Origin: a virus
Taxonomy: Duplodnaviria > Heunggongvirae > Uroviricota > Caudoviricetes
Virus record (IMG/VR): IMGVR_UViG_2531839668_000007
Length of the DNA stretch: 23,844 nt
Reading direction: 5' to 3' (one strand)
How positions within the stretch are numbered: the first letter of the stretch is position 1; every line of letters starts with the position of its first letter. A program made the translations under genes and the position numbers. A model generated the notes under the pieces. It had not been told where the DNA came from and did not search any database. It worked only from the letters and a program-made list of their open reading frames with translations. Positions 7,711 through 7,991 of the stretch are shown one piece after another.

Positions 7711-7886
7711 CTCATTACCCTTCCAAAGGGTCAGGTTCGGTGTTTATTGTACGCTGCGGTGCGCGGTGAAATACCTATACAAAAACGCCCCGCATCTGCG
7801 AGGCATTTTCCTGAAAGTCACTTGTTAAATTTCAGTGAAATTAAAATTATTTTAAGCACTGCGTCCTGATGTACTCCTGCAAGTAG

Positions 7887-7991
7887 TTAACCTGCGCGGT
7901 TAGCGTTATCACGGTAATGATTAACAGCCCATGACAGGCAGACGATGAGGCAGATGACCAGAACGTAGATAATCGCGGTTACTCTGCTCAT
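7887..7991 (-). pseudogene. Rz: Truncated Rz (i-spanin) fragment, 34 codons
   Basis: ATG at 7989-7991 overlaps the endolysin stop (ATGA); it reads [30 protein letters not shown] then NRAG-stop. The first 30 aa match the lambda Rz N-terminus as recalled; the rest of Rz and embedded Rz1 are missing. Confidence 0.7.

Follow-up and report, generated by a model that had tools for sequence, protein, structure and literature searches.

The junction between the remnants of the lysis gene Rz and the terminase gene Nu1 in the DNA analysed here (the window, 23,844 nt) very probably arose through two short deletions, independent of each other and each at a microhomology, in a lambda-like prophage remnant that was defective already. 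Judged from its sequence, this element of about 24 kb is a lambda-like prophage remnant of Escherichia coli, defective before the two deletions and related to Sp3/CP-933K. Across 17.5 kb, the window shares 99.98% identity with the chromosome of E. coli O157:H16 98-3133. The element is located between ybhC, found at the window end, and ybhB, just past window position 1. This is att-lambda, and its int and att are of the lambda type, the first characteristic of the Sp3/CP-933K type. The second characteristic of that type, the nleB2-nleC-nleH1-nleD cargo together with the loss of immunity and replication genes, was found as well (RefSeq annotation; lambda map). The late genes of the element are on the minus strand.

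A comparison with related prophages had been proposed in the earlier note, and a sister element with intact Rz/Rz1, cos and full-length Nu1 was indeed found. It was identified by megablast in E. coli Z1323PEC0012 (L003), at the same locus and with 99.92–99.96% identity on both sides of the junction; the configuration in strain FORC 064 is equivalent. These sisters share with the window the locus, the A-I fusion, the J deletions, Q, the lysis genes and lpxR, and keep 1,515 bp and 293 bp that the window is without. The gene order in the sister is holin, lysozyme, Rz (145 aa), a 149-bp spacer, rha, ylcI, about 390 bp, nohD/Nu1 (181 aa) and A'. With its flanks, the ylcI-nohD gap forms a 701-bp segment that is 96.4% identical to lambda 48092..48502/1..290, and an exact cosN, GGGCGGCGACCT, is located at L003 position 2771. 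Alignment of the window to the sister yields three blocks, hence two intervals are missing. Deletion 1 (1,515 bp) would have joined the spacer just upstream of rha to codon 34/35 of Nu1. The interval spans rha with 27 bp upstream of it, ylcI, the cos region in full, with all of the 701-bp lambda-like segment, and the first 100 nt of Nu1, so that rha, ylcI, a full lambda-type cosQ-cosN-cosB and the helix-turn-helix half of Nu1 would have been removed in one step. Deletion 2 (293 bp) would have taken out Rz nt 90-382 and with them the embedded Rz1. Since 293 is not a multiple of three, this deletion shifts the frame and the last 56 nt of Rz are out of frame. The positions of all features are given in Table 1.

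Table 1. Features of the prophage remnant. Positions are those of the window unless another record is named; L003 is the sister element of Z1323PEC0012.
Feature	Position	Strand	Description
attR core	L001 456-470, just past window position 1		One mismatch to the lambda core, at the first base
Cargo	~11660-12619 and 1-3741		Lipid A deacylase lpxR; type III effectors nleH1-1, nleC, nleB2
J gene deletions	5874-5941		Two, internal; lambda 16148 joined to 16486 and 16550 to 17968
A-I fusion	6997-6999 (8-mer 6992-6999)		Lambda 1018 joined to 15077; 14 kb of head/tail genes lost
Terminase large subunit (A) remnant	6997..7304	-	Codons 1-102; fused to the 3' part of tail gene I
Nu1 (terminase small subunit) remnant	7279..7722	-	Codons 35-181; 98.9% to lambda; Pfam PF07471
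Deletion 1 junction	7721..7724		TTCC microhomology (7/8 nt if extended); L003 2494-4008 missing, 1,515 bp
Rz-rha spacer remnant	7725..7846		122/149 nt; 99.5% to L003 4009-4130; 97.8% to phage IdasGreatGrand
Terminator-like hairpin	7781..7810		13-bp GC-rich stem; A-tract on one side, U-tract on the other
Rz 3' remnant	7847..7902	-	Last 56 nt including the stop codon; equals L003 4131-4186
Deletion 2 junction	7901..7902		TA microhomology; L003 4187-4479 missing, 293 bp = Rz nt 90-382
Rz 5' remnant	7903..7991	-	Gene nt 1-89; 94.4% to lambda 45966-46054; 99.96% to L003
Lysozyme, RrrD/R21-type	7988..8485	-	165 aa, intact; Pfam PF00959 E=2e-45; protein = WP_000075145.1
Holin, class II (phage 21-type)	8485..8700	-	71 aa, intact; Pfam PF04971 E=1e-32; RefSeq class II holin
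bet-ninG fusion	13953-13954		Lambda 32221 joined to 42580; 2-bp TT microhomology
IS66-family element	18247-20945		ISCro1-like; tnpA, tnpB, transposase; inserted beside a small ORF adjoining xis
int + xis	within 21160-22514		int 356 aa, xis 72 aa, intact
attL core	22500-22514		Exact lambda att core

On the packaging side, a lambda-type cos was defined as a cosN flanked by cosB and cosQ, about 190 bp upstream of the Nu1 start, where cosN is the 12-nt cohesive end GGGCGGCGACCT or one of its natural variants, which differ from it at positions 7-12. With up to two mismatches, no match to the 12-nt sequence exists in the whole window. Three mismatches or a pattern anchored on the left half gave matches in the window at chance level, none of them in 7711-7991. 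When 6700-8800 was compared with the joined lambda ends by blastn (word size 7, E<=10), the Rz 5' and the Nu1/A pieces were aligned, no others, and nothing in 7723-7902 matched; in particular, no part of that interval aligns to cosB (R3-I1-R2-R1) or cosQ within lambda 48092..290. The absence of a recognisable cos, as claimed in the earlier note, is thus confirmed across the window, and neither a cos site nor an intact alternative small terminase subunit was found when both were looked for. The stretch 7722..6997 corresponds to lambda 293..1018 with 98.9% identity, that is, to Nu1 from codon 35 to its end plus codons 1-102 of A. Accordingly, of the 164 positions in the PF07471 profile, the Nu1 remnant matches 35-164 and the full-length gene of the sister 1-164. 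The solved DNA-binding domains of Nu1 comprise residues 1-68 (1J9I) and 1-55 (7LW0). Because the remnant begins at codon 35, the helix-turn-helix half of this domain is lacking, and a full-length Nu1 with the N-terminal winged helix-turn-helix (residues 1-68) is absent from the window. The loss of the DNA-binding N-terminus had been recognised before, with the homology taken to start at codon 39; it starts at codon 35. Codon 39 is a GTG (window 7710) and the first possible start, with an AAGGG motif 8-9 nt upstream of it and an in-frame stop 8 codons upstream. In RefSeq the Nu1 remnant is a pseudogene missing its N-terminus, and the A fragment is a pseudogene, too.

In lambda, packaging starts with the winged helix-turn-helix of the small subunit binding cosB, whereby the large subunit is placed to nick cosN (PMC4669245), and its completion requires cosQ and cosN (PMC4669245). 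The element has no packaging signal and no functional small terminase. Its DNA would therefore be packaged neither by its own machinery nor by a lambda-type helper terminase, which agrees with the previous assessment that a lambda-type terminase cannot package it. Given the size limits of lambda packaging, a 24-kb element without O, P and ori would be a poor packaging substrate even with a cos.

The lysis cassette, headed by the holin gene, has kept holin and lysozyme intact. The reading frame of the Rz 5' remnant contains 30 Rz codons, followed by NRAG and a stop at 7887; it codes for the N-terminal transmembrane segment and nothing more of Rz (the transmembrane domain of lambda Rz consists of residues 1-24; PMC5295617). 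The 30 in-frame codons had been counted correctly in the earlier note. What was described there as a truncation is an internal, out-of-frame deletion, after which the last 56 nt of the gene are still present, in another frame than the 5' remnant. In the sister, Rz1 is read in the +1 frame over Rz nt 173-385 and has the lipobox LLGVSGC. With Rz nt 90-382 deleted, the window retains the stop codon of Rz1 alone, and an embedded +1-frame lipoprotein gene with a lipobox is absent from it. Equally absent is an i-spanin with a transmembrane segment and a periplasmic coiled coil. The Pfam family Phage_lysis has no match in the Rz remnant of the window and matches the Rz of the sister with E=5e-34. As had been stated earlier, the element is without a spanin: the periplasmic domain of Rz and the whole of Rz1 are gone. 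Lambda lysis requires both spanin subunits (PMC5295617). If holin and lysozyme are ever expressed, they should confer at most a spanin-null phenotype.

Between the two gene remnants, about 170 bp had been described as matching neither lambda cos nor Nu1. While it is true that 7723-7902 has no lambda match, the stretch can be identified by alignment as the 3' end of Rz plus the Rz-rha intergenic spacer. In the isolated phage IdasGreatGrand the spacer segment sits between the genes for an Rz-like spanin and an anti-repressor, about 900 bp upstream of the cosN of that phage; therefore, it is not a variant of cos. The spacer contains a terminator-like hairpin, for which RNA folding gave -23.9 kcal/mol (z = -4.6), and 0 of 200 shuffled sequences folded as well. 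As it is flanked by an A-tract and a U-tract, this hairpin could act as a bidirectional terminator. A consensus scan of 7500-8100 for promoters and terminators reported none; it probably missed the hairpin since the stem absorbs the U-run, and its negative result for terminators was set aside in favour of direct folding. The whole window was also scanned with Rfam, and no RNA family reached the gathering threshold.

By mapping the window against lambda we derived the gene content of the remnant: int, xis, an IS66-family insertion, the ea22-to-exo region, the bet-ninG fusion, ninG, ninI, a Q gene which is not that of lambda, lpxR, holin and lysozyme of the phage 21 type, the Rz/Nu1 junction, the Nu1 and A remnants, the A-I fusion, J, tail-fibre fragments, nleB2, nleC and nleH1-1. 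The cargo genes are all annotated as intact in RefSeq, among pseudogenised phage genes, and nleD is located just beyond the window. At the first of the J deletions the flanking alignments overlap by about 11-14 nt. The IS66-family insertion is bordered by an 8-bp target duplication, ATGATAAA, and has the terminal repeats GTAA(C/G)CGGCTC. Across the bet-ninG fusion, lambda 32222-42579 is lost, about 10.4 kb from gam through ninF including N, cI, cro, cII, O and P.

In the earlier note the lesions at the Rz/Nu1 junction were taken as support for a locked-in, cryptic state. This cannot be upheld. The A-I fusion, which removed 14 kb, is common to the cos-positive sisters, hence the head-tail deletion is older than deletions 1 and 2; these are late erosion and not the cause of crypticity. 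Moreover, the window copy is also without the 10.4 kb of immunity and replication genes. The expression "locked-in" concerns excision, and int, xis and both att cores are present. The DNA of int and xis is about 99% identical to lambda, and the remnant keeps the structural parts for excision; in Sp3 of strain Sakai, int is disrupted. It is plausible that the element is immobile through the loss of early promoters and regulators rather than through the Rz/Nu1 junction. With head, tail, immunity and replication genes gone already, we infer that both lesions at the junction are neutral, late-stage erosion.

The distribution of the junctions was surveyed in 5,426 complete E. coli genomes. The A-I fusion occurs in six of them, including both cos-positive ones. 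Junction 1 is contiguous in four (98-3133, BA92, STECUZB006 and Z1323CEC0012) and junction 2 in three. In place of junction 2, STECUZB006 has a larger deletion reaching from the holin gene into the 3' end of Rz, by which S, R and more of Rz were lost; the microhomology there measures 5-9 bp on the assumption that the intact form was the starting point and 2 bp on the assumption that the deleted form was. Erosion of the element thus continues. No more than 3 bp separate an endpoint of the 293-bp Rz deletion from one of the independent, larger S-R-Rz deletion in STECUZB006 (window 7888-7902; L004 5218-5235 in STECUZB006), and both are located at the base of the small inverted repeat TAACC-GCGCA-GGTTA (Rz sense; TAACC-TGCGC-GGTTA on the plus strand), which may be a deletion hotspot.

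The copy in Z1323CEC0012 has both junctions and is about 99.1% identical to the window (about 0.9% differences), so the undeleted sister, with 99.9%, is nearer to the window than this junction-bearing copy, and the divergence is not clock-like. From its divergence and the presence of both junctions it follows that the deletion model requires later recombination in Z1323CEC0012. When window 7902-8177 is compared with L005 8228-8503 of that strain, 17 differences are found in 275 bp, ending exactly at junction 2, and the Rz 5' and lysozyme 3' parts belong to a different, lambda-like allele. The tract looks like a later gene conversion from the lysozyme/Rz allele of another prophage; such a tract would end where the homology ends.

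Instead of drifting away, cos, rha and the spanin might have been lost under selection, with the effector cargo and the holin-lysozyme pair kept. Such a domestication could have brought several gains: a helper terminase would no longer cut at a chromosomal cos, the anti-repressor-like Rha would be gone, and lysis would be blunted. The intact state of nleB2, nleC, nleH1-1, lpxR, int and xis amid lost phage functions would fit, as would the presence of deletion 1 in 4 of the 6 element-bearing genomes. Against this, cos, rha and Rz are intact in two lineages with nearly identical sequence, the breakpoints are located within genes and do not remove a clean unit, and in STECUZB006 one deleted lineage lost S and R as well, which looks like undirected erosion. 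We therefore regard selected pruning as unlikely.

The direction of change could also be reversed. The compact form would then be the older one, and the sister would have gained rha-ylcI-cos and whole Rz and Nu1 genes from another lambdoid prophage. In its favour are the mosaic nature of lambdoid prophages, the 98-99% identity of the ylcI-cos-nohD-A' block to that of DLP12 in E. coli K-12, and the allele replacement in Z1323CEC0012 that ends at junction 2. Yet the gene fragments in the window, a Nu1 without codons 1-34 and an Rz in two out-of-frame pieces, can derive only from whole genes. Furthermore, there is simple microhomology at both junctions, and the flanking sequence agrees with that of the sister at 99.9% as far as the junction bases themselves. 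An acquisition by the sister is thus very improbable.

Equally little probability is given to a function of the terminase remnants themselves. The C-terminal part of Nu1 probably contains its self-assembly and gpA-binding functions, and an expressed Nu1(39-181)/A(1-102) remnant might be a decoy that poisons the terminase of incoming lambda-type phages. The reading frame from the GTG at codon 39, with the AAGGG motif 8-9 nt in front of it, is open, also in the divergent copy of Z1323CEC0012, and the A remnant retains the N-terminal 102 codons. If this were true, a fragment of a decaying prophage, unable to bind cos, would be an anti-phage device. However, no promoter-like site was seen in 7500-8100, a strong terminator-like hairpin is located just upstream, late transcription needs Q, which depends on early promoters that are deleted, and both fragments are pseudogenes in RefSeq.

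An assembly or sequencing artefact, such as a collapse between similar prophages, has a negligible chance: although an E. coli genome contains many near-identical lambdoid segments and the 1.3-kb junction region matches a median of 3 places per genome with any match, the same junctions are present in 3-4 complete genomes which were sequenced independently of one another, with the USA, Belgium and South Korea among their countries of origin; one of these genomes has private substitutions around the junctions. Thus, two deletions remain the preferred reading. They are ordinary prophage decay, an event of a well-known kind, and nothing contradicts the deletion model. The fragments are marked as pseudogenes in RefSeq already, and current understanding is unchallenged.

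Among known elements, Sp3 of E. coli O157:H7 Sakai, named CP-933K or O-island 36 in EDL933, has the same site between ybhC and ybhB, with lambda-type att cores, and the same cargo (lpxR, pphA, Q, holin, rrrD, nleB2, nleC, nleH1-1, nleD). Identity to the window is 97-99% over most shared segments, 98% across the cargo and 92-94% over the J and I fragments. Like the window element, Sp3 is without repressor and replication genes. It differs in its length of 38.6 kb, in its intact spanin, terminase (not of the Nu1 type) and most head and tail genes, and in its disrupted integrase; the window element, in contrast, is the more eroded of the two, measures about 24 kb, has a lambda/DLP12-type Nu1-A remnant and an intact int, and has lost cos, spanin, heads and most tails. 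In experiments with strain Sakai, Sp3 showed no circularisation, replication or packaging (PMC2669165). Relative to lambda itself, the remnants cover Rz nt 1-89, Nu1 nt 103-546 and A nt 1-308 at 94-99% identity; missing are cosQ, cosN, cosB, Nu1 residues 1-34, the periplasmic domain of Rz, and Rz1. Phage-inducible chromosomal islands have been described as analogous to defective prophages (PMC9026076). An assignment to these or to other cos-bearing satellites was considered and rejected, as the element is without a cos, and neither a gene for a packaging-redirecting factor nor a further terminase gene appears in its RefSeq annotation.

DLP12 of E. coli K-12 (essD-rrrD-rzpD ... ylcI-nohD-aaaD') is another lambdoid remnant with a ylcI-cos-nohD-A' block. 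It differs from the window element in that cos, a full-length nohD and an annotated full-length rzpD (Rz) are kept, and in its locus, which is next to appY and ompT. Both elements share a breakpoint in A. In the window as well as in aaaD' of DLP12 (L011 4001-4008), A breaks off exactly at lambda 1018, and the 8-mer TATTCCAG comes next. The partner of A' is gene I (lambda 15077) in the window and tfaD' (lambda 22119) in DLP12. Since two independent deletions are unlikely to coincide, one A junction probably arose from the other through an event at the 8-bp repeat. As regards the A of TATTCCAG in DLP12, an A/G variant in tfa, as a possible footprint of gene I, this A is natively present in 16 of 120 intact tfa genes from viral contigs. 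The shared breakpoint might mean that deletion scars are copied between cryptic prophages by homology-anchored illegitimate recombination.

Summarizing, two late steps by which a prophage with effector genes was eroded are documented here at nucleotide resolution, and among the six sequenced variants successive deletions can be seen as a small natural series, which may serve as a worked example of prophage decay. Moreover, this copy of the nleB2/nleC/nleH1 locus would not be movable by cos-dependent packaging, even with a lambda-type helper. The finding may be of mild use for understanding how type III effector loci become fixed in atypical EPEC/O157:H16-like lineages.
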